A stretch of DNA of 64,000 nucleotides from an uncultured Spirochaetota bacterium. Lineage in GTDB: Bacteria; Spirochaetota; Brevinematia; Brevinematales; JAOACQ01. Positions within the stretch are counted from its first letter, which is position 1; every line of letters begins with the position of its first letter. Below are positions 1,020-51,351 of this stretch, one piece after another. The notes below the pieces were generated by a model, which worked only from the letters and a program-made list of their open reading frames with translations, had not been told where the DNA came from and searched no databases. The stretch is from contig CAWIGG010000002.1 of assembly GCA_963835575.1 (NCBI GenBank), positions 192,001 through 256,000 of the forward strand, in the 5' to 3' direction. The position numbers and the translations under genes were made by a program.

Positions 1020-3677
1020 ATGAAGAAAATCTTCGGTTTAAAGAGATTAATCGCTCTTTTGACCATTGTAACGGCGGGCATTGTTCTGTCTTTACTGATC
1101 GTTTCATGCTCGACGACGTTAAGTTCTGGCGGTAATAATGGTTTTACAAGCCAGAATACAGAAACAAAGGCTGGAGGCTATAACTACGGCGAAGCCATCC
1201 AGAAAGCCATTATGTTCTACGAGTTTCAGCGCTCCGGAAAAATTGCCGCGGCTGATACAAACGGCCGTATGAACTGGCGCGGAAGTAGCGATATCAATGA
1301 CGGCTCTGATAACGGCATTGACCTGACCGGAGGCTGGCATGACGCGGGAGACCATGTCAAGTTTAACCTGCCCATGGCTTATTCGATATCCATGCTCTCC
1401 TGGGCTATTTATGAATACGGTGCGGCCCTTCAGTCCAGCGGCCAGTACGGCTACCTGACAAACAACATCAAGTGGGCTACGGATTATCTATTGAAATGCA
1501 GCGCCGGGTCCTCATATTATTATCAGGTCGGCAGCGGCGGCAATGATCATTCATGGTGGGGCCCCTGCGAAGTAAACCCGACCGTCAGGCCTTCCTACGC
1601 TGTAACCAGCGGCGGTTCGGCTGTAGCCGGTGAAACCGCGGCAGCTTTAGCCGCTGCAGCATGGGTTTTCCAGAACGGCGGTAATACTTCCTATGCTTCC
1701 ACGCTTCTCAGCACCGCCGAATCCCTTTATACCAAAGCCGCTTCCTGGGCCAGCGATTCCGCTTACAACAGCGGAGCGGCCAGCGGTTTTTACACATCTT
1801 CCAGCTGGGCCGACGACCTTTCCTGGGCAGCCATCTGGATCTATCTGGCCGGCGGCGGCAGCAGCTATCTGACAGCCGCGCAATCATGGACCAACCAATG
1901 GCCTGTCGTTACCGGATCATCCACATGGGATTACAGATGGACACAGTGCTGGGATGACGTTCACTACGGCGCTGAACTTATGCTGGCTAAATTAACAGGC
2001 CTTGACGTTTACAGGACCGCTATCGAACAGAGCCTGCAGTTCTGGACAACCGGTTATAACGGATTAAAAGTTACCTATACACCGGGCGGACTGGCATGGC
2101 TTTCAGAATGGGGTTGTCTGCGGTATGCCGTGAGCGAATCGTTTCTCGCATTTGTTTACACCGATTGGACAAACGCCGCGACGAGTAATCTGAGCGCTTA
2201 CAAGAGCTTTGCGGAAAACCAGGTTAACTATGTTCTGGGATCCACGGGAAAAAGCTATGAAATCGGTTTCGGAAGCAGTTATCCCCAGCATCCTCATCAC
2301 AGGACTGCTGAAAGCTCCTGGGCCAATGATATGAACACGCCGTCTTACGCAAGGCATACGATTTACGGAGCGCTTGTCGGCGGTCCGGACGCAAGCGATA
2401 ATTTTACAGATGCAGTCGGTTCGTATCAATACACAGAACCGGCCTGCGATTATAACGCGGGTTTTATCGCCTCACTTTCCAGAATGTACAAAGTTTACGG
2501 CGGTACGCCGATTGCGAACTTTACAAGCGCCATAGAAGTTCCTTCCAATACCGAGTTTTTCGTGTCGACGCAGCCTAACAGCACCGGCGCCAACTATTTT
2601 GAGGTGGCTGCCTGGCTGAACAACATGTCCGGCTGGCCGGCAAGACCGGGTACGAATCTTTCGTTCCGGTATTTTATCAATACTTCTGAATTTGCGGCAA
2701 ACGGCTACAGCGATACCAATGTTGCCATCACAGTCAATTACAACCAGGGCAACGCAACGGTATCGCCCAATCTGGTAGCATGGGACGCCGCAAATCATAT
2801 CTACTATGTCAATGTAAGTTTCAACAATACGAATATCTATCCCGGCGGACAGGGCATTTACCAGATGCAGATCCAGTTCAGGGTAGCGGGTCCGCAGAAC
2901 ACCAGCTTCTGGAGCAACCAGAACAACTGGTCCTATCAGGGCGGCATGACTACCAACAGTCCCAACCAGAATGTGCCTGTGTATATGTCCGGTGTTAAGA
3001 TATACGGTAATGAACCCGGAACATCCACTTCATCTTCTTCTGTTGCATCTTCAGTTGCAGTAAGTTCAAGCCTGGCCGCATCCAGCGTAGCGTCTTCTGT
3101 TGCGGTCAGTTCGAGCAGATCGAGTGTTGCGTCTTCGACAGCAGTAAGTTCAAGCCTGGCCGCATCCAGCGTAGCGTCTTCTGTTGCAGTTAGTTCGAGC
3201 AGATCGAGCGTAGCATCTTCAGTTGCGGTAAGCTCCAGCCGGTCGAGCGTAGCTTCTTCAGCAGCAGTCAGCTCGAGCCGGGCTGCATCCAGTGTTGCAG
3301 CTTCTAGCGTGGCTTCCAGCGTCGCAGTGTCCAGTGCGGCTTCAAGTACAGCCGGCGGATATGCTGTGAATTATACAGTCAATAATGACTGGGGTGCGGG
3401 CGCTACATGCACGGTGACCATAAAGAACAATTCCGCTACAGCCCTCAGTAGCTGGTCTCTTGTCTGGACTTTTGCAGGCAACCAGGCTATAACCCAGATA
3501 TGGAGCGCCAGTCAGACTACCAGCGGTGAAACAGTGACAGCCGTGAATTTAAGCTACAACGGTACGATCGGCGCGAATGGCGGAACGCAGAGCTTCGGCT
3601 TCAATTTGAGCTACAGCGGGTCCAATGCAAAACCGACTTCGTTCACTCTGAACGGAACGGCATGTACAACATATTAA
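1020..3677 (+). CDS. Lipoprotein GH9 endoglucanase (GH9-CBM3c-Ser/Ala linker-CBM2)
   Basis: Lipobox LIVSC; GGWHDAGDHVKF, PHHRTA and TEPACDYNAG motifs; CBM3c-like NMSGWPAR..LSFRYF..YG.EP; C-terminal CBM2 (NDWGAG..QIWS..SFGF..LNGTAC); GAGGAGG RBS. Confidence 0.93.
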   Translation: MKKIFGLKRLIALLTIVTAGIVLSLLIVSCSTTLSSGGNNGFTSQNTETKAGGYNYGEAIQKAIMFYEFQRSGKIAAADTNGRMNWRGSSDINDGSDNGIDLTGGWHDAGDHVKFNLPMAYSISMLSWAIYEYGAALQSSGQYGYLTNNIKWATDYLLKCSAGSSYYYQVGSGGNDHSWWGPCEVNPTVRPSYAVTSGGSAVAGETAAALAAAAWVFQNGGNTSYASTLLSTAESLYTKAASWASDSAYNSGAASGFYTSSSWADDLSWAAIWIYLAGGGSSYLTAAQSWTNQWPVVTGSSTWDYRWTQCWDDVHYGAELMLAKLTGLDVYRTAIEQSLQFWTTGYNGLKVTYTPGGLAWLSEWGCLRYAVSESFLAFVYTDWTNAATSNLSAYKSFAENQVNYVLGSTGKSYEIGFGSSYPQHPHHRTAESSWANDMNTPSYARHTIYGALVGGPDASDNFTDAVGSYQYTEPACDYNAGFIASLSRMYKVYGGTPIANFTSAIEVPSNTEFFVSTQPNSTGANYFEVAAWLNNMSGWPARPGTNLSFRYFINTSEFAANGYSDTNVAITVNYNQGNATVSPNLVAWDAANHIYYVNVSFNNTNIYPGGQGIYQMQIQFRVAGPQNTSFWSNQNNWSYQGGMTTNSPNQNVPVYMSGVKIYGNEPGTSTSSSSVASSVAVSSSLAASSVASSVAVSSSRSSVASSTAVSSSLAASSVASSVAVSSSRSSVASSVAVSSSRSSVASSAAVSSSRAASSVAASSVASSVAVSSAASSTAGGYAVNYTVNNDWGAGATCTVTIKNNSATALSSWSLVWTFAGNQAITQIWSASQTTSGETVTAVNLSYNGTIGANGGTQSFGFNLSYSGSNAKPTSFTLNGTACTTY

Positions 3678-4070: not shown

Positions 4071-6737
4071 ATGAAGAAAATCTTCGGTTTAAAGAGGTTA
4101 ATCGCTCTTTTGACCATTGTAACAGCGGGTATTGTTCTCGCAGCTTTTATCGTATCCTGTTCGCTGGTTTCCCATGAGAATTCCGGCCAGGGCTTCGATT
4201 CGAACCCTAATACTATGAAATCCGCGACGACATCAGGCGGCGGATATAACTACGGCGAAGCCATCCAGAAAGCCATTATGTTCTACGAGTTTCAGCGTTC
4301 AGGCAAGATCAACTCCGCTGATACTAACGGCCGTATGAACTGGCGCGGAGACAGCGATCTTAATGACGGCTCCGACAACGGTATAGACCTGACCGGCGGC
4401 TGGCATGACGCCGGCGATAATGTCAAGTTCAACCTGCCCATGTCCTACTCCGTATCCATGCTCTCCTGGGCCATCTACGAATACGGGGCCGCGATTCAAT
4501 CAAGCGGCCAGTACGGCTATCTGACGAACAATATCAAGTGGGCGACCGATTATCTATTGAAATGCAGCGCCGGGTCCTCATATTATTACCAGGTCGGCAG
4601 CGGCGCCAACGACCATTCATGGTGGGGACCTTGCGAAGTTAACCCAACGGTAAGGCCTTCATACTCATTGAGTAGCGGCGGTTCGGCAGTGGCCGGTGAA
4701 ACCGCGGCCGCTTTAGCCGCCGCAGCATGGGTTTTCCAGAACGGCGGAAATACTTCTTATGCTTCCACTCTGCTCACGCGCGCTGAATCCTTATATGCTT
4801 CAGCCGCTTCCTGGGCAAGCGATTCCGCATATAACTCCGGCGCCGCAAACGGTTATTATGGTTCCTCATGCTGGGCCGACGACCTTTCCTGGGCCGCAAT
4901 CTGGATCTACATTGCGGGCGGCGGAAGTTCTTACCTGACAGCCGCACAAACATGGACTAACCAATGGCCTGTCGTTACCGGATCATCCACATGGGATTAC
5001 AGGTGGACACAGTGCTGGGATGACGTTCACTACGGCGCTGAACTTATGCTGGCTAAATTAACAGGCCTTGACGTTTATAGGACCGCTATCGAACAGAGCC
5101 TGCAGTTCTGGACAACCGGTTATAACGGATTAAAAGTTACCTATACACCGGGCGGACTGGCATGGCTTTCACAATGGGGCTGTCTGCGGTATGCCATGAG
5201 CGAAGCGTTTCTCGCATTTGTCTACTGCGATTGGACAAACGCCGCAACGAGCAATCTGAGCGCTTACAAGAGCTTTGCTGAATCCCAGGTCAACTATGTT
5301 CTGGGCGCCACGGGCAGGAGCTTTGAAATCGGTTTCGGAACAAATTATCCCCTGCATCCGCACCACAGGACCGCGCAGGGTTCCTGGGCCGGCGATATGA
5401 ACATCCCGTCCTACTCAAGACATGTCCTTTACGGAGCGCTTAGCGGTGGTCCCGACTCAAGCGATGCTTTTACAGATGCTGTCGGTTCATATCAATGCAC
5501 CGAACCTGCCTGCGATTACAACGCGGGTTTTATCGCCTCACTTTCCAGAATGTACAAAGTTTACGGCGGTACGCCGATTGCGAACTTTACAAGCGCCATA
5601 GAAGTTCCTTCCAATACCGAGATTTTTGCATCCTCAATGTCGTACTATATGGGAACCGGCACTTATCAGGTAGTGGCGTTTATGAATAATATGTCGGGCT
5701 GGCCGGCAAGACCGGGCACCAATCTCTCTTTCAGGTGGTTTATCAATACATCATCGCTTGTCTCAGCCGGTTATTCCGATACGAATGTCACCGTACAGGT
5801 GAACGGAGGTGCGGGAAAGGTATCGCCGAATTTGATTGCATGGAACGCGGCCAGTCATATTTACTATGTTAATGTCGACTTCAGCGGCACAAACATCTGT
5901 CCTGCCGGGAATAATGTTTATCAGCTTCAGGCCAGCTTCCAGCTGAACGGCCCTTCAGGATCTACAGCATATAATTACAGCAATGACTGGTCTTACCTGG
6001 GAGGTATGACTACCAACAGTCCCAACCAGAATGTGCCTGTGTATATGTCCGGTGTTAAGATATACGGTAATGAACCCGGAACATCCACTTCATCTTCTTC
6101 TGTTGCATCTTCAGTTGCAGTAAGTTCAAGCCTGGCCGCATCCAGCGTAGCGTCTTCTGTTGCGGTCAGTTCGAGCAGATCGAGTGTTGCGTCTTCGACA
6201 GCAGTAAGTTCAAGCCTGGCCGCATCCAGCGTAGCGTCTTCTGTTGCAGTTAGTTCGAGCAGATCGAGCGTAGCATCTTCAGTTGCGGTAAGCTCCAGCC
6301 GGTCGAGCGTAGCTTCTTCAGCAGCAGTCAGCTCGAGCCGGGCTGCATCCAGTGTTGCAGCTTCTAGCGTGGCTTCCAGCGTCGCAGTGTCCAGTGCGGC
6401 TTCAAGTACAGCCGGCGGATATGCTGTGAATTATACAGTCAATAATGACTGGGGTGCGGGCGCTACATGCACGGTGACCATAAAGAACAATTCCGCTACA
6501 GCCCTCAGTAGCTGGTCTCTTGTCTGGACTTTTGCAGGCAACCAGGCTATAACCCAGATATGGAGCGCCAGTCAGACTACCAGCGGTGAAACAGTGACAG
6601 CCGTGAATTTAAGCTACAACGGTACGATCGGCGCGAATGGCGGAACGCAGAGCTTCGGCTTCAATTTGAGCTACAGCGGGTCCAATGCAAAACCGACTTC
6701 GTTCACTCTGAACGGAACGGCATGTACAACATATTAA
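4071..6737 (+). CDS. Lipoprotein GH9 endoglucanase (GH9-CBM3c-linker-CBM2), close paralog of 1020..3677
   Basis: Lipobox FIVSC; DAGDNVKF, PHHRTA, TEPACDYNAG; linker and CBM2 identical to the previous gene. Confidence 0.93.
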   Translation: MKKIFGLKRLIALLTIVTAGIVLAAFIVSCSLVSHENSGQGFDSNPNTMKSATTSGGGYNYGEAIQKAIMFYEFQRSGKINSADTNGRMNWRGDSDLNDGSDNGIDLTGGWHDAGDNVKFNLPMSYSVSMLSWAIYEYGAAIQSSGQYGYLTNNIKWATDYLLKCSAGSSYYYQVGSGANDHSWWGPCEVNPTVRPSYSLSSGGSAVAGETAAALAAAAWVFQNGGNTSYASTLLTRAESLYASAASWASDSAYNSGAANGYYGSSCWADDLSWAAIWIYIAGGGSSYLTAAQTWTNQWPVVTGSSTWDYRWTQCWDDVHYGAELMLAKLTGLDVYRTAIEQSLQFWTTGYNGLKVTYTPGGLAWLSQWGCLRYAMSEAFLAFVYCDWTNAATSNLSAYKSFAESQVNYVLGATGRSFEIGFGTNYPLHPHHRTAQGSWAGDMNIPSYSRHVLYGALSGGPDSSDAFTDAVGSYQCTEPACDYNAGFIASLSRMYKVYGGTPIANFTSAIEVPSNTEIFASSMSYYMGTGTYQVVAFMNNMSGWPARPGTNLSFRWFINTSSLVSAGYSDTNVTVQVNGGAGKVSPNLIAWNAASHIYYVNVDFSGTNICPAGNNVYQLQASFQLNGPSGSTAYNYSNDWSYLGGMTTNSPNQNVPVYMSGVKIYGNEPGTSTSSSSVASSVAVSSSLAASSVASSVAVSSSRSSVASSTAVSSSLAASSVASSVAVSSSRSSVASSVAVSSSRSSVASSAAVSSSRAASSVAASSVASSVAVSSAASSTAGGYAVNYTVNNDWGAGATCTVTIKNNSATALSSWSLVWTFAGNQAITQIWSASQTTSGETVTAVNLSYNGTIGANGGTQSFGFNLSYSGSNAKPTSFTLNGTACTTY

Positions 6738-7263: not shown

Positions 7264-9783
7264 ATGAAGAAAATCTTTGGTTTAAAGAGAATAATCGCTC
7301 TTTTAACCTTGATGACGGCGGGCATCGTTATTTCTTTGTTTATCGCTTCATGCTCTACGTCGATTAATTCTGGCGGTAATAATGGTTTTACAGACCAGAA
7401 TTCTCAAACTAAGGCAGGAGGCTATAACTACGGTGAAGCCCTCCAGAAGGCCATTATGTTCTACGAGTTCCAGAGGTCTGGAACAATCCCTTCAGATCAG
7501 AGAGACAACTGGAGAGGGAACTCCGGTATGAGCGACGCAGTCCTCGGCGGTTACTATGACGCCGGCGACCATGTCAAATTCAACCTTCCCATGGCCTTTT
7601 CAGCCAGTATGATGGCCTGGTCTCTCTATGAAAACGCTTCGGCTTATACGGCCACTGGTCAGACCGCTTATATTCAGAAAGCGATCCAGTGGGTTTGCGA
7701 CTACCTTGTCGGATGCCAGAGCGGAAACATCTATCAGATCGGCGACGGCAGTCTGGACCATGCCTGGTGGGGTCCCTGCGAAGTCATGCAGATGTCAAGA
7801 CCTGCGGCATCATCGGCTCAATGTTCTGCCGTATGGGGAGAAAGCGCCGCCGCTCTTGCCGCCGCTTCCAAAGTGCTCGGCAATTCTTCCTACCTGTCGG
7901 CTGCGAAGACCTATTTCAGCAAGGCTGAAAGTGCTATGAGCGATTCCGGTTATACCGCCGCTAACGGTTATTACAATTCCTGGAGCGGTTTCTATGATGA
8001 ACTGGTCTGGGCGGCAGTATGGCTCTATATTGCCTCCGGTGACAGCACATATTTAACGAAAGCTCAAACCTATTTTGGAAATATCGGGATGGAAGGACAG
8101 TCTTCCAACGTTGCTTACAAATGGACACAATCTTGGGACGACAAGCATTACGGCGCAGAGCTTTTGCTTGCCAAGTTAACAGGCGGCGCCCAATATAAAA
8201 CAGCCATTGAAAACAACCTGGACTACTGGACCACAGGCGGTCCTGACGGCTCCAAGATTACTTATACTCCCAAGGGTCTGGCCCATCTGGATAACTGGGG
8301 ATGTATCAGGTACGCTATGGGCGCTTCAACTCTAGCTTTTTGCTATGCCAACTGGTCCGGCGCGAATGCCACAAAAGCCGCCACTTACAAGTCTTTTGCT
8401 GAAACGCAGGTCAATTATGCTCTCGGCAGCACAGGCAGAAGCTATATAATCGGTTTCGGAAGCAATTATCCCCAGCATCCGCACCACAGAACGGCTGAAA
8501 GCTCATGGGCAGACAGCCAGACAGTACCGCCCTATTGCCGTCATACACTTATCGGCGCATTGGTCGGCGGTCCTGACGCAAGCGACAATTTTACCGACGA
8601 TGACAGCCAGTATCAATACACTGAACCGGCCTGCGACTATAACGCATGCTTGATCGGCGCACTGGCATATATGTATAATTCCTACGGCGGTACACCGGTA
8701 GCCAACTTGACGGCTAATGAAACTCCTTCCAACCTGGAATATTTTGTTCAGACTGCGCAAAATGCCACAGGAAATAACTTCTTTGAAGTCAAGTTTGATT
8801 TGTTCAACGAGTCAGGGTGGCCGGCAAGGGCGCTTTCAAACTCTGTGTCATTCCGCTACTTTTTTGATATTTCCGAACTTGTTGCAAAAGGGCATACCGC
8901 TAGTGATATTACCCTTACCGTCAATTACAATCAGGACAGCGCGGGTGTAGCCACACTGAAGCAGTGGAGCGGGAATATCTATTATATCAATGTCAACTGG
9001 ACCGGATTGATCTATCCCGGCGGACAGTCGATGTACAAGAAAGAAATTCAGGTCAGGTTTACTTATCCGACAGACGTGACAAACGATAACTCCAATGACT
9101 GGTCCTACCAGTATTTTAACAATGTAGTTACAACCGGAACAACAAATAACCCCAATGTGCCTGTATACATCAATGGGACGAAAGTTTATGGTAATGAACC
9201 CGGCGCAGCTTCTTCTTCAGCTGCTTCATCTGTAGCCGCGAGTTCACGTCCAGCATCCTCAGTAGCAGCATCCTCAATAGCAGCAAGCTCAGTGGCAGCA
9301 TCTTCATCATTGGCCGCATCATCCATAGCTGCTAGTTCACGGTCGAGCGTAGCATCCTCAGTAGCAGTCAGCTCGAGCCGGTCCAGTGTTGCGTCTTCAG
9401 TAGCAGTTTCCAGCGTTGCATCTTCAGTTGCTGTTTCCAGCGCAGCTTCTTCAGTCAGCGGCGGATATGCGGTTAATTACACCGTCAATAATGACTGGGG
9501 CGCGGGCGCTACATGCACGGTGACCATTAAGAACAATTCCGCTACAGCCCTCAGCAGCTGGTCTCTTGTCTGGACTTTTGCAGGCAACCAGGCGATCACG
9601 CAGATCTGGAGCGCAACGCAGACTTCCAGCGGTGAAACGGTGACTGTCAATAACCTGAGCTACAATAATGTCATCGGCGCGAACGGCGGAACGCAGAGCT
9701 TCGGCTTCAATTTGAGCTACAGCGGATCCAATGCAAAACCGACTTCGTTCACTTTGAACGGAACGGCATGTACACTTTACTAA
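7264..9783 (+). CDS. Lipoprotein GH9 endoglucanase (GH9-CBM3c-linker-CBM2)
   Basis: Lipobox FIASC; GGYYDAGDHVKF, PHHRTA, TEPACDYNA; NESGWPAR..YPGGQS..KKEIQ CBM3c; CBM2. Confidence 0.93.
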   Translation: MKKIFGLKRIIALLTLMTAGIVISLFIASCSTSINSGGNNGFTDQNSQTKAGGYNYGEALQKAIMFYEFQRSGTIPSDQRDNWRGNSGMSDAVLGGYYDAGDHVKFNLPMAFSASMMAWSLYENASAYTATGQTAYIQKAIQWVCDYLVGCQSGNIYQIGDGSLDHAWWGPCEVMQMSRPAASSAQCSAVWGESAAALAAASKVLGNSSYLSAAKTYFSKAESAMSDSGYTAANGYYNSWSGFYDELVWAAVWLYIASGDSTYLTKAQTYFGNIGMEGQSSNVAYKWTQSWDDKHYGAELLLAKLTGGAQYKTAIENNLDYWTTGGPDGSKITYTPKGLAHLDNWGCIRYAMGASTLAFCYANWSGANATKAATYKSFAETQVNYALGSTGRSYIIGFGSNYPQHPHHRTAESSWADSQTVPPYCRHTLIGALVGGPDASDNFTDDDSQYQYTEPACDYNACLIGALAYMYNSYGGTPVANLTANETPSNLEYFVQTAQNATGNNFFEVKFDLFNESGWPARALSNSVSFRYFFDISELVAKGHTASDITLTVNYNQDSAGVATLKQWSGNIYYINVNWTGLIYPGGQSMYKKEIQVRFTYPTDVTNDNSNDWSYQYFNNVVTTGTTNNPNVPVYINGTKVYGNEPGAASSSAASSVAASSRPASSVAASSIAASSVAASSSLAASSIAASSRSSVASSVAVSSSRSSVASSVAVSSVASSVAVSSAASSVSGGYAVNYTVNNDWGAGATCTVTIKNNSATALSSWSLVWTFAGNQAITQIWSATQTSSGETVTVNNLSYNNVIGANGGTQSFGFNLSYSGSNAKPTSFTLNGTACTLY

Positions 9784-9894: not shown

Positions 9895-11736
9895 ATGATA
9901 AAGAGAAACAAAGTGAAACTAATTTTATTAGGTTTAGGTGCAATGTTTTTTGTTCTCCAGTTTTCTACCTGCTCATTACAGTCTAATCAGGAAACTGGAC
10001 AGCAAAACAATACGACGGCTGTCAATACACAGAAAGCCACGGTTTCCAGCGTCGGGCGTCTGACAGGCGTCAACTGGTTCGGATTTGAAACCGGAAACTT
10101 CTGTCCCCATGGTCTCTGGTCCAGAGACTATAAATCCATGTTGAAGCAGATCAAAGACCTCGGTTTTAACTGTATTCGTATGCCCTGGTGCAACGATATG
10201 CTGTCGGCAACTCCCAACAGCATACAGATCAACGCTTCAGGCGTGGACGCGTACACAGGTCAGACCGGCCTGAACATGGACCTGGCCGGACTTTCTTCAA
10301 TCCAGGTAATGGACAAGGTAATCGATGAGGCAACCAGGGTCGACGGTATAAAGATCATCCTGGACAACCATTCAAAGACACATGACAACTATAATAATGA
10401 AACATTATGGTACACATCATCCTGTTCGGAAAGCCAGGGTATTTCGGATTGGCTTACTCTAATCAACCGTTATAAGAATAACGCGTATGTTTGCGGGGCC
10501 GATCTGAAGAACAAGCCTCATGGCAATATGACTACAGGTATGAGACCGCCTGCGACCTGGGGTTATGATGAACCCGGTCAGGGAACGACAGACTGGAAAG
10601 CGGCCGCCGAAAGGATCGGTACCGCCATCCTTAACGCCAATCCCAATATGATCATCATCGTGGAAGGCGTGGAATGCTATTACAATTATCCTACGGATAC
10701 TGTTACCAACTTCTTCTGGTGGGGCGGCGAATTATCAGGTGTTGCAGACCATCCTATCACTGCTATTCCTTCTGCCCAGCTGATGTATTCTGTTCATGAG
10801 TACGGTCCCGAAGTCTATAATCAGTCCTGGTTCCAGGATTCCACATTCCCGAACAATATGCCTGCCATCTGGGACAAACATTACTATTTTATTAAAAAGA
10901 ATGGCATAGGCTCTCTGTTCTTCGGTGAATTCGGCATAACGGAATCCGCAGTAGAAGCCGGCGGAGTGGCAGCCACATGGTATAAGAACTTTATGGCATA
11001 TATCGGAACCGCCAACAGCTGGACATTCTGGTGCATCAACCCGGATTCCGGCGACACCGGCGGTATATTACAGAACAACTGGGTTACTGTAGAGCCGTCT
11101 AAATACGCGGTTTTGAAACCCTATCTGGCCGCTCAATTCTCGCCTCTCGGCGGAGCAAGTTCATCTTCATCCTCTACTGTATCTTCAGTTGCTGCGAGTT
11201 CGAGCCGGGCAGCATCCTCAGTGGCAGTCAGTTCGAGCAGATCGAGCGCAGCTTCTTCAGTCGCTGCAAGCTCCAGCCGGGCCGCATCCAGCGTTGCTTC
11301 ATCTATAGCCGCTAGTTCACGGTCCAGTGTTGCTTCTTCTGCAGCGGTTAGTTCGAGCCGGTCGAGCGCCGCATCCAGCGCCGCGGCTTCCAGTACTGCC
11401 GCTTCATCAGGCGGCGGATATGCTGTTAATTATACGGTTAATAATGACTGGGGCGCAGGCGCCACATGCACGGTGACCGTTAAGAACAACAGCGCTACGG
11501 CTGTAAATGGATGGTCCTTAGTATGGACTTACGCTGGCAATCAGACGCTGACGCAGATTTGGAACGCCACATATACCGCAAGCGGAGAGACCATTACCGT
11601 CACAAACGCAAGCTTTAACAATGTCATAAGCGTAAACGGCGGGACGCAGAGCTTCGGCTTCAATCTGAGCTACAGCGGGTCCAATGCAAAACCGGCTTCG
11701 TTCACTTTGAACGGAACGGCTTGCACAACATACTAA
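9895..11736 (+). CDS. Lipoprotein GH5 (subfamily 1-like) endoglucanase-CBM2 with catalytic acid/base Glu replaced by Lys
   Basis: GVNWFGFET, HEYGP, FGEFG and WCINPDSGDTGG motifs. DLKNKPH stands where paralogs 35644 and 37514 have DLKNEPH. Confidence 0.88.
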   Translation: MIKRNKVKLILLGLGAMFFVLQFSTCSLQSNQETGQQNNTTAVNTQKATVSSVGRLTGVNWFGFETGNFCPHGLWSRDYKSMLKQIKDLGFNCIRMPWCNDMLSATPNSIQINASGVDAYTGQTGLNMDLAGLSSIQVMDKVIDEATRVDGIKIILDNHSKTHDNYNNETLWYTSSCSESQGISDWLTLINRYKNNAYVCGADLKNKPHGNMTTGMRPPATWGYDEPGQGTTDWKAAAERIGTAILNANPNMIIIVEGVECYYNYPTDTVTNFFWWGGELSGVADHPITAIPSAQLMYSVHEYGPEVYNQSWFQDSTFPNNMPAIWDKHYYFIKKNGIGSLFFGEFGITESAVEAGGVAATWYKNFMAYIGTANSWTFWCINPDSGDTGGILQNNWVTVEPSKYAVLKPYLAAQFSPLGGASSSSSSTVSSVAASSSRAASSVAVSSSRSSAASSVAASSSRAASSVASSIAASSRSSVASSAAVSSSRSSAASSAAASSTAASSGGGYAVNYTVNNDWGAGATCTVTVKNNSATAVNGWSLVWTYAGNQTLTQIWNATYTASGETITVTNASFNNVISVNGGTQSFGFNLSYSGSNAKPASFTLNGTACTTY

Positions 11737-35620: not shown

Positions 35621-35643
35621 CGGATAAAAAATGGAGGAACATT

Positions 35644-39355: not shown

Positions 39356-39394
39356 AATCCGTTTCAAAATAAATTGATAAGGAGGAAAATTTTT

Positions 39395-41488: not shown

Positions 41489-41499
41489 TAATATGAATA

Positions 41500-41710: not shown

Positions 41711-43636
41711 ATGAATCACTTGAAGGTTAAAGCGATTTTACTGTTCGGAAGCATACTGTGCTTTTTATGGTCATGCTCCGTAAACCCTATGAGTGAGAAA
41801 GGCCAGTCATTGTCTTTCACTGGGGTGAAAGCGACGGCGAACGGAAAGTTTTTGGGAAATATCTGGGGAGGCAATACCGAACCTCTGAACTTCAGCAAGT
41901 ATTGGAACCAGGTGACGCCTGAAAACGCAGGAAAATGGGGATCAGTGGAATTGTCCCAGGGCACTTACAACTGGAGTGATCTGGATGCGCAGTACAGTTA
42001 TGCCAAATCCAAAGGCTTCCCGTTTAAGTTTCATAATCTGGTATGGGGAAGCCAGCAGCCGAGCTGGATCAGTTCATTATCTGCCACAAACCAGGTGCTG
42101 GCTGTAATTGATTGGATCTCGAATGTCGGCGCAAGATACTCAAACCTTGATTTTATCGACGTGGTCAACGAACCGATTAAAACCGGCCAGCCTCCCTATG
42201 GGGCGGCCATCGGCGGCAGCGGTTCGACGGGATGGGACTGGGTCATTTTTGCATTTACGGTGGCACGGAAATATTGCGGCAATGCAAAACTGCTTGTTAA
42301 TGAATACAGTGTGGAAAATGATACCTCTGCAGCAGCGCAATACACCAATATTATCAATTTGCTGAAAAGCCGTAATCTGATAGATGGAGTGGGGATCCAG
42401 GGCCATTATTTCAGTTTGGACAGTGATGATACCGGTACTTTATCAAACTGTCTGTCAATTATATTGTCCACAGGCCTTCCGATTTACATTTCTGAGCTTG
42501 ACCTTGACGGAGATGATGCGACTCAGCTTTCCAGATACCAAAAATATTTTCCGATCCTCTGGAATTACTCAACGATTAAAGGCGTCACACTCTGGGGATA
42601 CATCCAGGGTTCAATCTGGACAACAAACGCTTATCTCTTAACCACTTCCGGGACGGAACGCCCGGCATTGACCTGGCTGATGCAGTATGTCGGCAATACT
42701 ACCTCGACCAGTTCCAGCAGCCCGGTTGCGTCTTCCAGCAGCGCGGCTTCGTCCGTACCTGTAAGCTCCAGCCGGTCGTCCGCGGCGAGCAGTATTGCTT
42801 CTTCAGTTGCTGTCAGCTCCAGCCAGGCGAGCAGTATAGCCAGTTCCGCTTCATCCTCAGTCCAGTATCAGAATATTACTCTTCCGTTCAGCTTTGACGG
42901 CACGGGAGAATTATACTGGCAGACAAGCGGTACGATCACCAGCATGAATTCCTGGAATCTTGATGCGCTGGATGTGAATGGGACAAGCTTTAAAAATGTG
43001 TATGTCGCCGGAAGCAGCCTGCCCGCGAAACAGAATGGATACTACTACATTCACTATAAGGGGTCATATTCCTATAGTCATGTTGAAATTGCCGGCACAT
43101 CAGGATCGGTGAGCAGCAGTTCGATAGCTGTCAGTTCCAGCCCGGCAAGCAGTGTCGCCTCTTCAATAGCGGCAAGCTCCAGCCGTGCAGCCTCTTCAAT
43201 AGCAGCTAGCTCTAGCAGATCGAGTATTGCATCTTCAGTAGCAGTCAGCTCAAGCCTGGCCGCATCCAGTGTCGCTTCCAGTGCGGCATCGAGCACGGCT
43301 TCCAGCACAAGCGGCGGGTATGCAGTGAATTATACCGTCAATAATGACTGGGGCGCGGGCGCCACAGTCACGGTAACCATAAAGAACAATTCCGCAACGG
43401 CCCTTTCGAGCTGGTCTCTTGTCTGGACATTTGCGGGCAATCAGCAGATCACTCAGATCTGGAGCGCCACGCAGACAACCAGCGGCGCGACCGTTACTGT
43501 GAATAGTTTAACTTATAACGGCGCGATCGGCGCGAACGGCGGAACGCAGAGTTTCGGCTTCAATCTGAGCTACAGCGGCTCGAACGCCAAGCCGGCAGCA
43601 TTTACTTTGAATGGGACGGCATGCTCGACTTATTGA
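41711..43636 (+). CDS. Lipoprotein GH10 endo-xylanase with CBM64-like module and CBM2
   Basis: WNQVTPENAGKWG, FHNLVWGSQQP, DVVNEP, GIQGH, IYISELD and GVTLWG motifs; lipobox FLWSC. Confidence 0.92.
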   Translation: MNHLKVKAILLFGSILCFLWSCSVNPMSEKGQSLSFTGVKATANGKFLGNIWGGNTEPLNFSKYWNQVTPENAGKWGSVELSQGTYNWSDLDAQYSYAKSKGFPFKFHNLVWGSQQPSWISSLSATNQVLAVIDWISNVGARYSNLDFIDVVNEPIKTGQPPYGAAIGGSGSTGWDWVIFAFTVARKYCGNAKLLVNEYSVENDTSAAAQYTNIINLLKSRNLIDGVGIQGHYFSLDSDDTGTLSNCLSIILSTGLPIYISELDLDGDDATQLSRYQKYFPILWNYSTIKGVTLWGYIQGSIWTTNAYLLTTSGTERPALTWLMQYVGNTTSTSSSSPVASSSSAASSVPVSSSRSSAASSIASSVAVSSSQASSIASSASSSVQYQNITLPFSFDGTGELYWQTSGTITSMNSWNLDALDVNGTSFKNVYVAGSSLPAKQNGYYYIHYKGSYSYSHVEIAGTSGSVSSSSIAVSSSPASSVASSIAASSSRAASSIAASSSRSSIASSVAVSSSLAASSVASSAASSTASSTSGGYAVNYTVNNDWGAGATVTVTIKNNSATALSSWSLVWTFAGNQQITQIWSATQTTSGATVTVNSLTYNGAIGANGGTQSFGFNLSYSGSNAKPAAFTLNGTACSTY

Positions 43637-43874: not shown

Positions 43875-45985
43875 ATGAAGCTATTGAAGATGAAAGTTTT
43901 ATTACTGTCCGGAAGCATGCTGTGCTTTTTATGGTCATGCTCGTAAGCCCTTTGAGTGAGAAAAGTCAGTCATTGTCTTTCACCGCGGTGAAAGCGACGG
44001 CGAGCGGAAAGTTTCTGGGTAATATCTGGGGAGGCAGTTCCGAGCCCCTCAATTTCAGTACATACTGGAACCAGGTGACTCCTGAAAACGCCGGGAAATG
44101 GGGTTCCGTGGAATCCAGCCAGGGAACCTATAACTGGAGCGCATTGGACGCGCAATACAGTTATGCTAAATCCAGAGGATATCCTTTTAAATTCCATAAT
44201 CTGATCTGGGGCAGCCAGCAGCCTGCCTGGATCAGCACTTTGTCGGCCGCGAACCAGGTGCTGGCGGTCATCGATTGGATTTCGAATGTCGGCGCGAGAT
44301 ACAGCAATTTAGACTTCATAGATGTGGTCAATGAACCTCTGCATTCGCCGCCCTCCTATTCGAATGCGATGGGCGGAAGCGGCTCCACCGGCTGGGACTG
44401 GATTGTTTTTGCATTTCAACAGGCGCGGAAGTATTGCGGGAATGCAAAACTGCTTATCAATGAGTATGGCGTGGAGGGCAACACCACGGCCATGGCAAAC
44501 TACACGAATATCATCAGTATTCTTAAGGCTTCGAATTTGATAGATGGAGTGGGAGTCCAGGGGCATGATTTCAGTCTTGACGGCTGTTCACTAAGCACGC
44601 TGTCGAACTGCTTGTCTATGATTGCGGCCACAGGATTGCCGATCTATATTTCGGAGCTTGATCTTTCATCTACTGATGACACTGTCCAGCTTGGTCTTTA
44701 TCAGAAGTATTTCCCGGCATTGTGGGAAAATCCGGATGTCATGGGTGTTACTTTGTGGGGTTATATTCAAGGCTCAATATGGACTTCCAATGCTTTTCTT
44801 CTCTACACAAACGGCACGGAACGCCCTGCTCTGACATGGCTGACGAATTATGTGAGAGGCGGGGCTTCTTCTGCAGGCGGATCCATCCAGGTTTTTTTCT
44901 ACAACGGAAATACCAGTACATCAGTAAACAGCCTTTCCCTTAATTTTCTTATATCCAATACGGGACTCTCCATCATCAATTTAACCAATGTGACTCTCCG
45001 CTATTACTACACCATTGACAGCGCAACGAATCAGATCTTCAACTGTAATTACTCGACTTTAGGCAACAGCAGTGTGACCGGAAGTTTTGTAACGATGCCG
45101 AATCCCGGGCCGACTGCAGACAGATATGTTCAGATCGGCTTTACGAGTGCGGCCGGAAGCCTGTATGCCGGGAATAGCGCTGTGGTTCAAGTTGCGGTAA
45201 ATAAAAGTGACTGGTCCAGTTATATACAAACAAATGATTATTCATTTAATTCCTCGGCCGCAACATATACGTCCTGGTCAAAAGTGACCGGGTATATCTC
45301 AGGCACGCTTGCATTTGGCACAGAGCCGTCTTCCGGCAGTTCCTCATCCATCTCAAGTGTGAGTTCCAGTCTATCCAGTTCATTAAGCAGTTCCGTTATT
45401 TCCTCGAGCAGCAGCCGTTCCGCCGCATCATCTTCGGTCAGCTCCAGCCTGAGCTCGAGTAAATCGTCGAGCAGTGTGTCCAGTCCTGCTTCGAGCAGCA
45501 GCCGTTCCAGCGTTGCATCCAGCATTTCCTCATCAGTAGCAGTGAGTTCCAGCCTTTCCAGCGTTGCGTCATCGGCAGCGGTGAGCTCGAGCCTGGCAGC
45601 ATCCAGTGTTGCTTCAAGCGTTGCTTCCAGTGCAGCATCGAGCGCGGCATCCAGCACAAGCGGCGGGTATGCAGTTAATTATACAGTCAATAATGACTGG
45701 GGCGCAGGGGCTACGTGCACGGTGACCATAAAGAACAACAGCGCCGCAGCCGTAAACGGATGGACATTAGTCTGGACATTTGCGGGTAATCAGACTCTCA
45801 CACAGATTTGGAACGCAACTGACACCCAGAGCGGAGCAACTGTTACCGTTAAGAACGCGAGCTTTAATAATATCATCGGAGCGAGCGGCGGGACCCAGAG
45901 CTTCGGATTTAATTTGAGTTACAGCGGTTCGAATGTTAAACCCGCGGCATTTACTTTAAACGGTACGGCATGCACACTTTACTGA
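43875..45985 (+). pseudogene. GH10 xylanase-CBM3-linker-CBM2 with a one-base deletion just after the lipobox (or a sequencing error)
   Basis: AGGAG RBS and ATG 43875 give MKLLKMKVLLLSGSMLCFLWSCS* (TAA 43944-43946). The paralog reads TGC TCC GTA where this copy reads TGC TC GTA. ORF 43922..45985 holds intact GH10 and CBM3 (LRYYYT, NDYSF) modules. Confidence 0.83.
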
Positions 45986-46535: not shown

Positions 46536-49238
46536 ATGAGAAAAGTATTTCCAAGAAAGCAATTTTGGCTTACTTTGATGTTTTTTGCTGTCGGTATTTC
46601 TCTAGCAGTAATCGTATCTTGTTCCCTTTCAACTTTTGGAGGCGGTCCTAATGCGGATTACTCTAAAGTCAATCATGCGCCGAGCTATCCGGGTGTGGCA
46701 ACACGGGCGGCTCCTATGGTCATTGATACCAATGTCTCGGTTGATGCTTCAACTGTTGTCAGGACCATGCCGGACGATTTGTTCGGGAACAACATTGCGG
46801 CCTGGGAAGGGAGTACGGATGGGAAGGACGCCTTTTTGAATGACTTCATGAAGATAAGCGGCATGAAACTGATCCGTTATCCCGGCGGTTCATGGGCAGA
46901 TATCGTGGCCTGGGACACGGTCGGAGTGCCTTCAAGCAATTCATGGGAGCTGGACAATAATGAGTCAATAGCTTTTGCGAAAGCAGCCGGAGCCAATCTC
47001 CAGGCGATCGTCAACTTCAGCGGATACTGGGACGGCGTTCAGCATACACCGGCCGATGCGGTGGCTAAAGCGTCCAACTGGGTCGCCTATATGAAGAACA
47101 CCGCCGCTTTTCCAATTAAATACTGGGAAATCGGCAATGAATCATACGGCAGCTGGGAACAGGGCTACACAAATGGAGCCGCCTATGGCAGCCGTTTTGC
47201 CGATTTTTATAAGGCAATGAAAGCCATTGATTCCACGATCCAGATCGGGGCCGTTTCCACGCCTTACGATAACGGCGACAGCTATACAGGATATTACTGG
47301 TGGATGAGGGATATGTTATCCAATTCAATAGCAAAAGGAGTGATTCCGGATTACCTGATTATCCATACCTATCCGATGGACGAAGCCATGTCGGCCGATG
47401 CCGACGCAAGGCTGTTACAGGCGCCCTGGACGATATCTCAATTGACGGCTAACCTGGACCAGATCGTGGCCAATTATGCCGGATCAAGCTATGTTGGAAA
47501 GATTCCATATAGAATGACGGAATACCGTTCCGTTTTGAACAGCCGCGGCCAGACGATCACTTTCCTGGACGCAATGTTCACGGCACAGTACATCATGGAA
47601 ATGGCGAAACACGGCTGGGCCGGGGCCAATTTGTGGAATATCAGGAACGGTATGAGTACCAGTTATAATGGAGATTACGGCATATTTCAAAAAACCAGTT
47701 CAGGAACTGTTATTGACGACTATTACACAACTTATCTTGTGTTCCCGTTCCTGAGCAGTAAATTCGGGCGCAGCATGGTCAATGCGTCGGTCACAAGCAA
47801 TTCCTATATCAATGCCTATGCTGCCAAGGATGCATCCGGTAATCTGACCATATTGCTGATCAATAATTCTCCGGATACAGACCTTACGGCCCAGGTGAAC
47901 ATTACCGGTTTTACCGCCGCGACAAACGGGTTGGAATGGGTGCTGGCTCCGGCCGGTATGACGGCGAGCGGCGCCACAACACCAATACAGGAATGCACGA
48001 ATATTTCCTATAACGGTGTGGTCCACCCGAGCGCTCAAACTGCTTATTACACGAGCGGCATACCGATAAAAACAGGGACGAATTTTCCGGTTCCAGTGAA
48101 AAAAAGCACGATGGTTCTGGTTAATGTTCCCAGTACGGCCAATGCCAGCAGTTCATCATCCGTTTCTTCCATGTCTTTCGCTTCTTCCAGCAGCCGTCCG
48201 AGTGATATTGTGCAAACTATTCCCGGAAAAGTTATTGGGGATTATTATACGAATATGAACGGCATTCAAGTTGAATCCTGCGGCGATTCAAACGGCGTTG
48301 GAGACGGATACGATATCGGTTATATAGATTATGGAGATTGGTGCGATTACAACGTTAATGTCCAGAGTACGGCAAATTATAATGTGGAATTCAGGATCGC
48401 AGGCGCAACACCGGCTGGATGTATCCAGATTTATACGAATGGACAATGGATCATGCAGACGATATCTACTCTACCGGCAACAACTGGATATCAGGACTGG
48501 ACTTCCTATAATACAAATTTCACACTGACTGCCGGGCGTTATGTACTGCGGGTCTTTTTCAACGGGAACGGCTTTAACTTCGAATATGCCAATTTCACGA
48601 TACCGGGCGGTTCTTCATCGAGTTCCAGCGCAGCATCTTCGGTACCGGCAAGCTCCAGCCGTTCGAGTGTTGCGTCCAGTGTGGCTTCGAGTATTGCATC
48701 GTCAACCGCAGTGAGTTCAAGCCGTGCCGCGTCCAGCGTCGCTTCTTCAGTTGCCGTCAGTTCGAGCCGGTCGAGCGCTGCATCCTCAGCGGCAGTAAGC
48801 TCCAGCAGATCGAGCGCTGCGTCTTCTGTGGCTGTGAGTTCGAGCCGGGCCGCATCAAGTGCAGTTTCCAGTGCTGCGGTTTCCAGTGCGGCTTCCAGCA
48901 CAGCCGCTTCATCTGGCGGTTACGCCGTGAATTATACTGTTAATAATGACTGGGGCGCAGGCGCCACTTGCACGGTGACCATTAAAAACAATAGCGCGGC
49001 AGCCCTCAGCAGCTGGTCTCTTGTCTGGACCTTTGCAGGCAACCAGGCTATAACCCAGATATGGAGCGCCAGTCAGACTACCAGCGGTGAAACGGTGACA
49101 GCCGTCAATCTCAGTTACAACGGTGCGATAGGAGCGAACGGCGGAACACAGAGTTTCGGCTTTAATCTCTCATACAGCGGGTCCAATGCCAAACCAACAG
49201 CATTCACTTTAAACGGAACTGCATGTTCAATTTATTAA
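46536..49238 (+). CDS. Lipoprotein clan GH-A hydrolase (GH51-like) with CBM6-like module and CBM2
   Basis: LIRYPGGSWAD, KYWEIGNESYGSWE and RMTEY motifs; CBM6-like IGYIDYGDWCDYNVNV..TTGYQDW; lipobox VIVSC. Exact family uncertain. Confidence 0.72.
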   Translation: MRKVFPRKQFWLTLMFFAVGISLAVIVSCSLSTFGGGPNADYSKVNHAPSYPGVATRAAPMVIDTNVSVDASTVVRTMPDDLFGNNIAAWEGSTDGKDAFLNDFMKISGMKLIRYPGGSWADIVAWDTVGVPSSNSWELDNNESIAFAKAAGANLQAIVNFSGYWDGVQHTPADAVAKASNWVAYMKNTAAFPIKYWEIGNESYGSWEQGYTNGAAYGSRFADFYKAMKAIDSTIQIGAVSTPYDNGDSYTGYYWWMRDMLSNSIAKGVIPDYLIIHTYPMDEAMSADADARLLQAPWTISQLTANLDQIVANYAGSSYVGKIPYRMTEYRSVLNSRGQTITFLDAMFTAQYIMEMAKHGWAGANLWNIRNGMSTSYNGDYGIFQKTSSGTVIDDYYTTYLVFPFLSSKFGRSMVNASVTSNSYINAYAAKDASGNLTILLINNSPDTDLTAQVNITGFTAATNGLEWVLAPAGMTASGATTPIQECTNISYNGVVHPSAQTAYYTSGIPIKTGTNFPVPVKKSTMVLVNVPSTANASSSSSVSSMSFASSSSRPSDIVQTIPGKVIGDYYTNMNGIQVESCGDSNGVGDGYDIGYIDYGDWCDYNVNVQSTANYNVEFRIAGATPAGCIQIYTNGQWIMQTISTLPATTGYQDWTSYNTNFTLTAGRYVLRVFFNGNGFNFEYANFTIPGGSSSSSSAASSVPASSSRSSVASSVASSIASSTAVSSSRAASSVASSVAVSSSRSSAASSAAVSSSRSSAASSVAVSSSRAASSAVSSAAVSSAASSTAASSGGYAVNYTVNNDWGAGATCTVTIKNNSAAALSSWSLVWTFAGNQAITQIWSASQTTSGETVTAVNLSYNGAIGANGGTQSFGFNLSYSGSNAKPTAFTLNGTACSIY

Positions 49239-49560: not shown

Positions 49561-51351
49561 ATGAGGAAAATCTTAGTAAGGTTTCTGCTTCTTGCTCTAA
49601 CTCTTGCGGCCGCATTGTGTGTTGTGTCATGCGCGTTATCAATCCCGGACGGATCGAATCAGGGTGAAAAATCCCAGCCTTTGGGTTCGGGCTTGAGGGC
49701 CGCTCCGGTAGGCAGCGGCGCGTATCCTTACGGAACTGTTCTCGGGAATGACAATCAAATGCTTGTCAACAGCTACAGCACCTGGAAATCGAAATACGTC
49801 ACTTCTTCCGGGGCGTCGGGTTATCTGAGGGTCCAGCGCCCGGAAAATAACAATGATACTGTTTCGGAGGGCATCGGCTACGGCATGCTTATTGCCGTTT
49901 ATATGAATGACCAGGCGACATTCAACTCTCTGTGGAGCTATGCCCAGAAGTATCTGGACGCCGACGGCCTGATGAACTGGCAGATTGACAGTTCCGGGAA
50001 CGTTATCGGACAGAACGGGGCCACGGACGCCGATGAGGATATGACTCTGGCACTGGTTGCCGCCGATAAATTATGGGGCGGCTATACTTCTCAGGCCACG
50101 GGCATGATCCAGAAAATTTATAATAACGAGGTCGAAAGCGGCACCTACTGCATAAAGCCGGGTGATGTCTGGGGCGGATCGGCATGTATGAACCCATCGT
50201 ATTTTGCCACAGCGGAATACCGGGTTTTCGCACAGTATTCCGGCAATACAGGCTGGACTTCCGCGGCATCGGAATGCTATACGGTTTTAAACGCTAATAA
50301 AAACGCCACTACCGGTCTGGTGATGGACTGGTGCCAGGCTAACGGTACCCCTTCTTCCCAGCAGCCCGGTGGAACCAATTATCTCTATGATGCTTGCCGC
50401 GTTCCGATGAGAATATCTCTGGATTATCTGTGGTTCGGGACTTCAAGCGCACAGACTTTCCTGAATACAATGATCGGCTGGTTTGCCAATATCGGCGCAG
50501 CAAATATTAAGTCCAGTTATACTGTAACCGGGACCCCGCTTGTGACTTACCAGGATTGCGCCTTTTTAGGGCCCATCGCTGCCGGTTCATGCTCGGCATC
50601 AGTCAGTTCAACTTTCAGGTCTGATATTTTTACCGATTTGACCAACAGGGGCGTTAATAACAATTACTATAATGATTCTCTGGCAATGATCTGCATGCTG
50701 ATCACAACCGGACACTTCCCGAATCCTCTAACTTTGAGCGGGAACTCTTCATCTTCCGCAGCTGCCAGTTCGAGCCGTTCCAGCGCCGCCTCTTCAGCAG
50801 CTGTGAGCTCCAGTGCAAGCGTAGCTTCTTCTGCCGCTGTGAGTTCGAGCCGGTCGAGCGTCGCTTCTTCAGTTGCCGTCAGTTCGAGCCGGTCGAGCGC
50901 TGCATCCTCAGCGGCAGTAAGCTCTAGCAGATCGAGCGCTGCGTCTTCTGTGGCTGTGAGTTCGAGCCGGGCCGCATCAAGTGCAGCTTCCAGCGCCGCA
51001 GTGTCCAGTGCGGCTTCAAGTACAGCCGGCGGATATGCTGTGAATTATACAGTCAATAATGATTGGGGCGCAGGCGCTACATGCACGGTAACCATAAAGA
51101 ACAATAGCGCCGCGGCTGTAAACGGATGGACCTTAGTATGGACTTACACGGGTAATCAGACTCTCACACAGATATGGAACGCTGCATATACTGCAAGCGG
51201 AGAGACCATTACCGTCACAAACGCAAGCTTTAACAATGTTATCAGTGCTAACGGCGGGACTCAGAGCTTCGGCTTCAATTTGAGCTATAGCGGATCCAAT
51301 GCCAAACCAACGGCGTTTACGCTGAACGGGACGGCATGTACAACGTACTAA
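49561..51351 (+). CDS. Lipoprotein GH8 endoglucanase-CBM2
   Basis: DTVSEGIGYGM, ATDADED, NPSYF, YDACRVP and YYNDSL are GH8 motifs; lipobox CVVSC. Confidence 0.92.
   Translation: MRKILVRFLLLALTLAAALCVVSCALSIPDGSNQGEKSQPLGSGLRAAPVGSGAYPYGTVLGNDNQMLVNSYSTWKSKYVTSSGASGYLRVQRPENNNDTVSEGIGYGMLIAVYMNDQATFNSLWSYAQKYLDADGLMNWQIDSSGNVIGQNGATDADEDMTLALVAADKLWGGYTSQATGMIQKIYNNEVESGTYCIKPGDVWGGSACMNPSYFATAEYRVFAQYSGNTGWTSAASECYTVLNANKNATTGLVMDWCQANGTPSSQQPGGTNYLYDACRVPMRISLDYLWFGTSSAQTFLNTMIGWFANIGAANIKSSYTVTGTPLVTYQDCAFLGPIAAGSCSASVSSTFRSDIFTDLTNRGVNNNYYNDSLAMICMLITTGHFPNPLTLSGNSSSSAAASSSRSSAASSAAVSSSASVASSAAVSSSRSSVASSVAVSSSRSSAASSAAVSSSRSSAASSVAVSSSRAASSAASSAAVSSAASSTAGGYAVNYTVNNDWGAGATCTVTIKNNSAAAVNGWTLVWTYTGNQTLTQIWNAAYTASGETITVTNASFNNVISANGGTQSFGFNLSYSGSNAKPTAFTLNGTACTTY

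Follow-up and report, generated by a model that had tools for sequence, protein, structure and literature searches.

Introduction

Klebsiella pullulanase is a lipoprotein substrate of type II secretion that is released still acylated. To our knowledge, it is unexplained how spirochaetes without type II secretion bring cellulases, xylanases and chitinases onto insoluble substrate. In Bacteroides, fragipain is reported to cut BFT and Fab1 at Arg-Ala (R211-A212 of BFT and R200-A201 of Fab1) and to be required for their release into the medium (PMC8406203), and a review credits it with the release of numerous Bacteroides surface lipoproteins (PMC12632263). FimA and Mfa1 of Porphyromonas gingivalis are described as lipoprotein precursors cut by gingipain at Arg46 and Arg49, with anchor subunits that lack the site (PMC8512630, PMC5954841). 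In Treponema pallidum, Tp0751 (pallilysin) is reported to be cut at R77-S78 by thrombin, and its release from the surface has been proposed (PMC3406077). Here we describe a junction of Lys or Arg and, usually, Ala (K/R-A) in a set of lipoprotein-type glycoside hydrolases (GH) with carbohydrate-binding modules (CBM), encoded in a 64,000-nucleotide stretch of DNA (the window, C2:192001-256000) from an uncultured spirochaete of the order Brevinematales, and compare it with these systems. The genome (4.39 Mb) is labeled G000 and C2, C4 and C5 are its contigs; G-numbers denote other spirochaete genomes, L-numbers loci and P-numbers database proteins.

The junction motif is real, selected and lineage-spanning and, as judged from the alignments and counts below, is most likely a release site. 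We lean, with modest confidence, towards export of the enzymes as surface lipoproteins, followed by cleavage after the K/R and release. By this mechanism, the enzymes would be exported along the surface lipoprotein pathway and lipid-anchored, the K/R would be the P1 residue of a processing site such that a cut after it frees the enzyme, and lipoprotein enzymes without the site would stay anchored. The protease probably differs between lineages.

Results and Discussion

Conserved junction in the window enzymes

The window was found to carry 19 glycoside hydrolase genes on the same strand between positions 1020 and 51351 (families GH5, 8, 9, 10, 12 and 116, with 3 of the 19 catalytic regions giving no Pfam match), and a Ser-rich linker followed by a near-identical CBM2 forms the C-terminus of all 19 enzymes. 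When 28 window proteins were searched against Pfam, the array proteins gave GH and CBM domains only. A lipoprotein-type signal peptide with a lipobox Cys is predicted, by a heuristic call, at the start of the 18 intact genes. The nineteenth (the 43922 open reading frame) is frameshifted in this assembly, as its signal peptide and lipobox (ATG at 43875) are in another frame than its tether and V-K-A (43991). An unbroken 711-residue version of this GH10 enzyme (P0122) was found on another contig with K at +18. The frameshift in this second GH10 gene (43875-43940) may be an assembly error.

A sequence-only reading of this DNA had listed 19 junction words ending the tethers between the Cys and the catalytic domain, and all 19 were found in the window translations. 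K/R-A is present in 18 of the 19 enzymes (17 of the 18 intact, the remaining one having K-S). With the Cys as position 0, 17 intact genes have the K/R within +18 to +22 and the 46536 gene has it at +28, in agreement with that reading. The description of the tethers as mostly unalignable was also borne out: over the last 12 tether residues, the median identity is 8% for all pairs of 26 CBM2/CBM3 enzymes from the window and elsewhere in the genome, with some paralogue pairs at 50-100%. In these 26 enzymes, the only conserved columns at the junction are the K/R (13 K and 13 R) and the next residue (Ala in 24), with a weak preference for T before (11) and for T or A after (16); the pairs are R-A (12), K-A (12), K-S (1) and R-M (1). 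Ahead of the junction the tethers are poor in K/R (3%). The 26 catalytic regions form 14 sequence clusters with the motif in all 14, and the number of independent cases is therefore about 14 and not 19 to 26. Five K/R codons and all four Ala codons occur at the junctions; thus, the conservation is at the protein level. A DNA-level repeat at the junction was considered and rejected.

The junctions are all on the forward strand. In the GH9-CBM3-CBM2 lipoproteins, K-A is at 1167..1172 (gene 1020-3677, Cys codon 1107, Cys+20), 7411..7416 (7264-9783, Cys codon 7351, Cys+20), 18708..18713 (18564-21161, Cys codon 18642, Cys+22) and 30836..30841 (30695-33322, Cys codon 30770, Cys+22), and R-A is at 21525..21530 (21405-23966, Cys codon 21468, Cys+19). 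The GH9-CBM2 lipoprotein (4071-6737) has the K-S junction at 4218..4223 (Cys codon 4158, Cys+20). The GH5-CBM2 lipoproteins have K-A at 10033..10038 (9895-11736, Cys codon 9970, Cys+21) and R-A at 33536..33541 (33365-35296, Cys codon 33476, Cys+20), 35776..35781 (35617-37428, Cys codon 35719, Cys+19) and 37646..37651 (37514-39355, Cys codon 37589, Cys+19). A CBM2 lipoprotein whose catalytic region clusters with the GH5 at 33365 (12170-13990) has K-A at 12293..12298 (Cys codon 12227, Cys+22), and the GH5-CBM64-CBM2 lipoprotein (24015-25985) has K-A at 24141..24146 (Cys codon 24081, Cys+20). K-A is likewise present in the GH116-CBM2 lipoprotein (14057-16921; 14216..14221, Cys codon 14162, Cys+18), the GH12-CBM2 lipoprotein (17035-18312; 17155..17160, Cys codon 17092, Cys+21), the GH10-CBM64-CBM2 lipoprotein (41711-43636; 41828..41833, Cys codon 41774, Cys+18) and the frameshifted GH10-CBM3-CBM2 gene (open reading frame 43922-45985; 43991..43996). 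R-A is present in the CBM64-CBM2 lipoprotein (39374-41488, catalytic region without Pfam match; 39524..39529, Cys codon 39461, Cys+21), the CBM6-CBM2 lipoprotein (46536-49238, catalytic region without Pfam match; 46704..46709, Cys codon 46620, Cys+28) and the GH8-CBM2 lipoprotein (49561-51351; 49696..49701, Cys codon 49630, Cys+22). Two GH5-type genes of the array (9895-11736 and 12170-13990) encode N-K-P where paralogues have N-E-P (catalytic acid/base), a difference that may represent activity loss or an assembly error.

Specificity within the genome

Genes and lipoproteins of G000 were called by use of our own scripts (3,766 genes and 239 lipoprotein candidates; the lipoprotein caller is a heuristic of our own and not SignalP), and [KR]A with the K/R at +16 to +29 from the Cys was scored genome-wide. 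G000 was found to encode 25 CBM2 proteins, including 19 in the window, 5 lipoproteins elsewhere (4 with K/R-A and 1 with R-M) and 1 GH48-like protein with an ordinary signal peptide. Outside the window, CBM3 gave four matches. Three of these are lipoprotein enzymes, all with K/R-A (one with an in-frame stop before the CBM3); it was the motif that first drew attention to them, ahead of any knowledge of the CBM3. The fourth match is a C1 protease that was not called a lipoprotein and was excluded from the counts.

The motif was detected in 17 of the 18 intact window enzymes and in 7 of the 8 CBM2/CBM3 enzymes elsewhere. By contrast, it was found in 19 of 214 other predicted lipoproteins, a set that includes some evident false calls (Fisher 1e-6 for the outside eight), in 2 of 67 other lipoproteins with similarly S/G/N/T/P/Q-rich tethers and in none of 12 CAZyme lipoproteins without CBM2/CBM3. 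An equal frequency of K/R-A in unrelated lipoproteins, which the sequence-only reading had named as evidence against its interpretation, was not observed. Taken together, these counts support a motif specific to the cellulose-binding enzymes and uncommon in other lipoproteins of the genome.

As lipoproteins were called heuristically and the data themselves were used to choose the span, the pattern might be ascribed to chance or to a word chosen by eye. We find this hardly credible: [KR]A is present in 24 of the 26 CBM2/CBM3 enzymes, whereas 20,000 within-tether shuffles gave 2.2 on average and never more than 8, and enzymes elsewhere in the genome and in other genomes are likewise enriched. 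As far as the lipoprotein caller can be relied on, this explanation is already refuted.

Conservation in other spirochaetes

Family searches over about 400 Spirochaetota genomes revealed GH9 in 46 of 401, CBM64 in 12 of 401 and CBM3 in 9 of 401. Junctions at the CBM64 loci that lack a following Ala were judged by eye. In G058 (family f31), all 7 CBM64 lipoproteins have R-A or R-G at +13 to +18 (Cys = 1), and in G227 (same family) all 7 have a K/R (six K/R-A and one R-F). Five CBM64 enzymes of G007 have K (two K-A, K-G, K-T and K-P), while G011 has two K-A, G010 has R-V, a Spirochaetaceae locus (L027) has R-A, K-G and R-S, and the junction of G149 is ambiguous. We take family f31 to be the Spirochaeta thermophila group, because that name is carried by P0133, a GH10-CBM64 lipoprotein among the homologues.

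The lipoproteins of G058 (106 called in 2.096 of 2.473 Mb) were also compared among themselves. A pattern fitted to this genome, [SA]R[AG], was found in 7 of 7 CBM64 enzymes by contrast to 8 of 99 other lipoproteins. Five of these eight are a GH18-CBM5/12 chitinase, a GH13 amylase, a CBM56-CBM6-GH64 beta-1,3-glucanase with its truncated copy, and a GH53 galactanase. The GH43, GH16, GH3, CBM4-GH9 and CBM-less GH10 lipoproteins of G058 are without the motif, and no such junction was seen by eye in GH10 lipoproteins without type A CBMs from other spirochaetes. On these sequence comparisons, the site is widespread without being universal, and its carriers are mainly enzymes that act on insoluble polysaccharides.

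Two further variants of the junction were observed. CBM64 lipoproteins of a different type (P0301 and P0318) have R-A or R-V about 28 residues after the Cys. In other lipoproteins, M-A or L-A ends the tether before the fold (C2:842810, C2:844642, C4:123288, C2:1265855 and C4:253755 of G000, as well as G001 (L187) and P0302), possibly as a second specificity class of the same junction.

Position relative to the fold and to signal peptidase I sites

The GH10 enzyme encoded at 41711 was modeled from its Cys by AlphaFold. The model has an alternating strand-helix domain and a disordered tether. Its pLDDT is <50 at residues 1-4 and 9-20, a stretch that includes the K (residue 19), and exceeds 90 over most of the remainder. 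The model thereby supports placement of the K/R in the disordered tether just outside the fold.

Alignment with soluble homologues places the junction near the mature N-terminus. In the GH9 enzyme encoded at 7264 (K50|A51), the Ala is aligned with residue 1 of PDB 1G87. The I-P-R|A of the protein encoded at 39374 matches A-Q-A|A of soluble P0342, with the R on the last apparent signal-peptide Ala, and the V-T-R| of C5:356984 aligns with A-E-A| of soluble P0364 (the signal cuts of P0342 and P0364 were judged by eye). For three of the four families compared, the alignments thus put the K/R at P1 of the cut that signal peptidase I makes in soluble homologues, and the conserved Ala may simply be an inherited first mature residue.

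Signal peptides of soluble homologues also bear on whether the junction is a relic of gene fusion that now has no function. The enzymes could have come from Firmicutes and retained the last part of their signal peptide (often V/T/A-K-A), or mature domains could have been joined to a lipoprotein leader cassette with K/R at its end, which then spread as paralogues recombined. In 103 non-lipoprotein GH9 homologues (a heavily redundant set), position -5 relative to the first conserved motif is K in 51 and position -4 is A in 83, one residue from the K-A of the window. AGA/AGG account for 12 of 13 junction Arg codons versus 53% genome-wide, as expected from descent from one Lys/Arg codon, and the CBM2 modules are near-identical, thus shuffling is active in this array. 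By contrast, when the final two positions of the signal peptide were tallied in 91 GH10 homologues, K/R was not in the top six residues, and the GH10 lipoproteins nonetheless have K. The distance from K/R to domain also varies from 3 to 9 residues within one GH9 subfamily, and the K/R has been retained in two classes of the phylum, as well as in an unrelated chitinase, amylase and GH64 enzyme, although the tether has decayed to the low identity given above. We consider a relic improbable.

A cut after the Ala (K/R-A|) by signal peptidase I, or by a housekeeping envelope protease such as HtrA, with release into the periplasm or from the surface, was weighed as well. If the cut falls after the residue that follows the K/R, small residues are at -3/-1 in 18 of 26 junctions, T/V/S-K-A here and S/A-R-A in G058 fitting this rule, and Firmicute GH9 signal peptides often end in K-A. 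Suitable enzymes are common: in the five genomes tested, signal peptidase I (by Pfam search) and trypsin-fold genes were each found in 5 of 5, the latter of HtrA type where seen (excluding G058 C1:2332316, one of five, and two weak G227 genes), and CtpA and RseP are common to G000 and G058. However, the other 8 of the 26 junctions break the -3/-1 rule (Q, N, P, E, K or M at -3, or M at -1), the K/R is kept across genomes while the next residue varies (G, V, F, S or T), and the register with P0342 and 1G87 places the Ala on the mature side. Signal peptidase I requires an adjacent hydrophobic region and is not known to select K/R at -2. This region is gone once a lipoprotein is processed; no hydrophobic region was found immediately upstream of the site, from which that of the signal peptide is separated by the lipobox Cys and 17-27 polar tether residues. 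A cut after the Ala is, in our estimation, distinctly unlikely.

Secretion systems and candidate proteases

A secretin match was obtained in G000 only (1 of 5 genomes tested); none was detected in G058, G227, G007 or G010, which speaks against a type II route in these four. The CBM enzymes of these genomes are predicted lipoproteins, and a route other than type II would therefore be needed; the lipoprotein route is their likely export path. In G000, a type II secretion-like cluster (secretin, ATPase and pseudopilin-like genes, read by eye) is located at C2:760796-775691. Inside this cluster, C2:770883-773411 (-) encodes a GH48-like protein (by eye) that is the sole CBM2 enzyme of G000 with an ordinary signal peptide.

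A search for Arg/Lys-specific proteases, as the sequence-only reading had proposed, gave candidates in this genome and none common to all motif-bearing genomes among C11, C14, C25 and S9A. Three clostripain (C11) lipoproteins with His/Cys motifs (HG and D-A-C) were found in G000, at C2:146290, C2:153232 and C2:933303, and are the leading protease candidates there; C11 matches were also detected in G007, G011, G116 and G403. The C14 family is represented in G000 by an exported protein. Small C14 caspase-family lipoproteins with a cellulase-like C-S-I/L start were observed at L297 (G010) and L298 (G007) and are candidate sheddases in that genus. A profile of three C14 proteins and a clan-CD pattern gave no match in 2.096 of 2.473 Mb of G058. 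Pfam/NCBIfam scans of exported or membrane proteins of G058 that have a G000 homologue (86 and 115; of 297 candidates) returned just HtrA, CtpA, RseP, signal peptidase I, ClpP and M23. The CBM3-fused C1 papain-family protease of G000 (C2:1906573-1908234 (+); L116:3574-5232) has a lipoprotein-like leader, with an atypical Arg before the Cys, and T-R-A at the prodomain end; it is a cellulose-targeted protease.

Observations for and against cleavage

Several observations weigh against cleavage after the K/R, of which the main weakness is that none of the Arg/Lys-type protease families tested is common to all motif-bearing genomes. C11 was not found in G058 (complete), G227 or G010, C14 was not found in G058 or G227, S8 and C1 were not found in G058, G227 or G010, and S9A was found in 0 of 5 motif-bearing genomes; C25 (gingipain) was found in 0 of 5 genomes with a control that was also silent, and this result is uninformative. 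In both CBM64 enzymes of G001, a member of the window's genus, the junction has Met and no K/R, Met likewise occupies this place in P0302, and the lipoprotein GH9 homologues P0048 and P0061 lack a K/R there. The residue after the K/R varies across genomes (G, V, F, S, T, P and M), and one G007 junction is K-P. Trypsin-like enzymes are not known to cut K-P. The K of the GH10 enzymes is one residue off the commonest signal-peptide Ala of their homologues. In G058, the span originally given in the sequence-only reading detects 4 of 7 CBM64 enzymes versus 12 of 99 others (p 0.01), a weaker result because the tethers are shorter there, and the stronger [SA]R[AG] result comes from a pattern fitted to this one genome. 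When 1.84 billion representatives were searched with a CBM64 profile, 23 of the 150 top matches were called lipoproteins, and 16 were kept after 4 already counted and 3 with doubtful lipoboxes were dropped. Just 8 of these 16 have [KR][AS] at +14 to +29; in a further 4, a K/R with a different follower was recognized by eye, and the remaining 4 lack a K/R or are ambiguous. Our search turned up no experimental cleavage data.

Some of these observations would suit a K/R(M)-A that is an uncut recognition element for a sorting or surface-translocation factor, with enzymes that stay lipid-anchored or leave in outer-membrane vesicles. No common Arg/Lys protease was found, and the Met in place of Lys/Arg in G001, P0302 and ice-binding-like paralogues of G000 (K-A at C4:243798 and M-A at C4:253755) fits a bound long aliphatic side chain. 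The second residue after the Cys is moreover hydrophobic in 24 of 26 of the enzymes versus 74 of 214 other lipoproteins, which gives them another common signature. However, the word is present in just 2 of the 67 lipoproteins with the same C-S/T-hydrophobic start and disordered tether and is therefore not needed by all likely surface lipoproteins, nor would a binding signal have to line up with the start of the mature protein in soluble homologues. An uncut element is thus judged rather unlikely.

Lipoprotein export followed by shedding at the K/R, as first suggested by the sequence-only reading, stands on the specificity of the motif, its disordered position, the register in three pairs and the distant conservation; the lack of a common protease in the families tested, the variable Ala and the absence of K/R from G001 tell against it. 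A broader version can be offered as a tentative possibility, on the doubtful side: a phylum-spanning route in polymer-degrading Spirochaetota without type II/IX secretion, in which lipoprotein surface export would be followed by shedding or recognition at the K/R, the protease or factor would be outside C11, C14, C25 and S9A at least in the S. thermophila group, and the presence of the site would sort free from cell-bound enzymes in a manner readable from sequence.

If the site is cut, it would represent a secretion strategy for a cellulase system that we did not find in print; a search of titles and abstract openings, which does not establish absence from print, found no publication describing this site or route for spirochaete hydrolases. 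Cleavage would also provide a sequence rule separating shed from anchored lipoproteins in Spirochaetota, predicted native N-termini for dozens of enzymes (such as ATEL, AAAS, AVTT, APDT, AVWE, AAPR and GVAQ in G058-type proteins) and a sheddase to look for, and it would extend the Bacteroidota logic of a lipoprotein followed by an Arg-Ala cut to a second phylum.

Neighboring genes and other observations

A LacI-like/PAS/LuxR regulator (window 3-662 with C2:190137-192662 of G000) adjoins cellulase genes here and at loci L027, L036 and L048. PMT-type glycosyltransferase genes lie beside the enzyme array (window 52091-55443) and beside the GH10 genes of G058 (L170:2874-6650) and are candidates for glycosylation of the Ser-rich linkers. 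Elsewhere in G000, an in-frame TGA that may be an assembly error splits a GH5-linker-CBM3 gene (C2:1805842-1807600), and C5:379609-381144 (-) (L130) encodes a lipoprotein matching the thiol-activated cytolysin family (Pfam E 3e-25).

Comparison with described systems

The sequence-only reading had drawn a parallel to type V pilins, with which the window enzymes share a predicted lipoprotein precursor, with its lipobox, and an N-terminal Arg/Lys site; pilin anchor subunits without the site stay attached, like the lipoprotein enzymes without the motif here. The parallel does not extend to the fold. No pilin family match was found among the 28 window proteins by Pfam, and membership was rejected, as Pfam gives GH/CBM domains only and the modeled GH10 lacks the pilin beta-sandwich. 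Unlike for the pilins, no groove, donor strand or polymer is predicted for the enzymes, the piece that would be removed is predicted to be disordered, and there is no C25 match (control silent).

Tp0751 is similarly a spirochaete lipoprotein cut after Arg in its N-terminal region. It is, however, a single protein cut by host thrombin or itself, with release as a model, whereas the site described here is found in a whole enzyme set of free-living spirochaetes. Klebsiella pullulanase is likewise a polysaccharide hydrolase exported as a lipoprotein, and a type II secretion cluster is present in this genome; by contrast, four other motif-bearing genomes are without a secretin match, and the GH48 CBM2 enzyme of the cluster has an ordinary signal peptide.

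By analogy, the closer precedent is fragipain-dependent release at Arg-Ala and not type V pilin assembly. The two differ in that the site is 18-28 residues from the Cys here, such that a bare tether and not a large prodomain would be removed, in that half of the sites are Lys, in that C11 was not found in three motif-bearing genomes, and in that the substrates are cellulases and other polysaccharide hydrolases of the phylum Spirochaetota. Like the substrates of fragipain (C11) in Bacteroides, the enzymes described here are predicted to be exported as lipoproteins; their junction is R-A in 12 of 26 and K-A in another 12, and this genome encodes three C11 lipoproteins.

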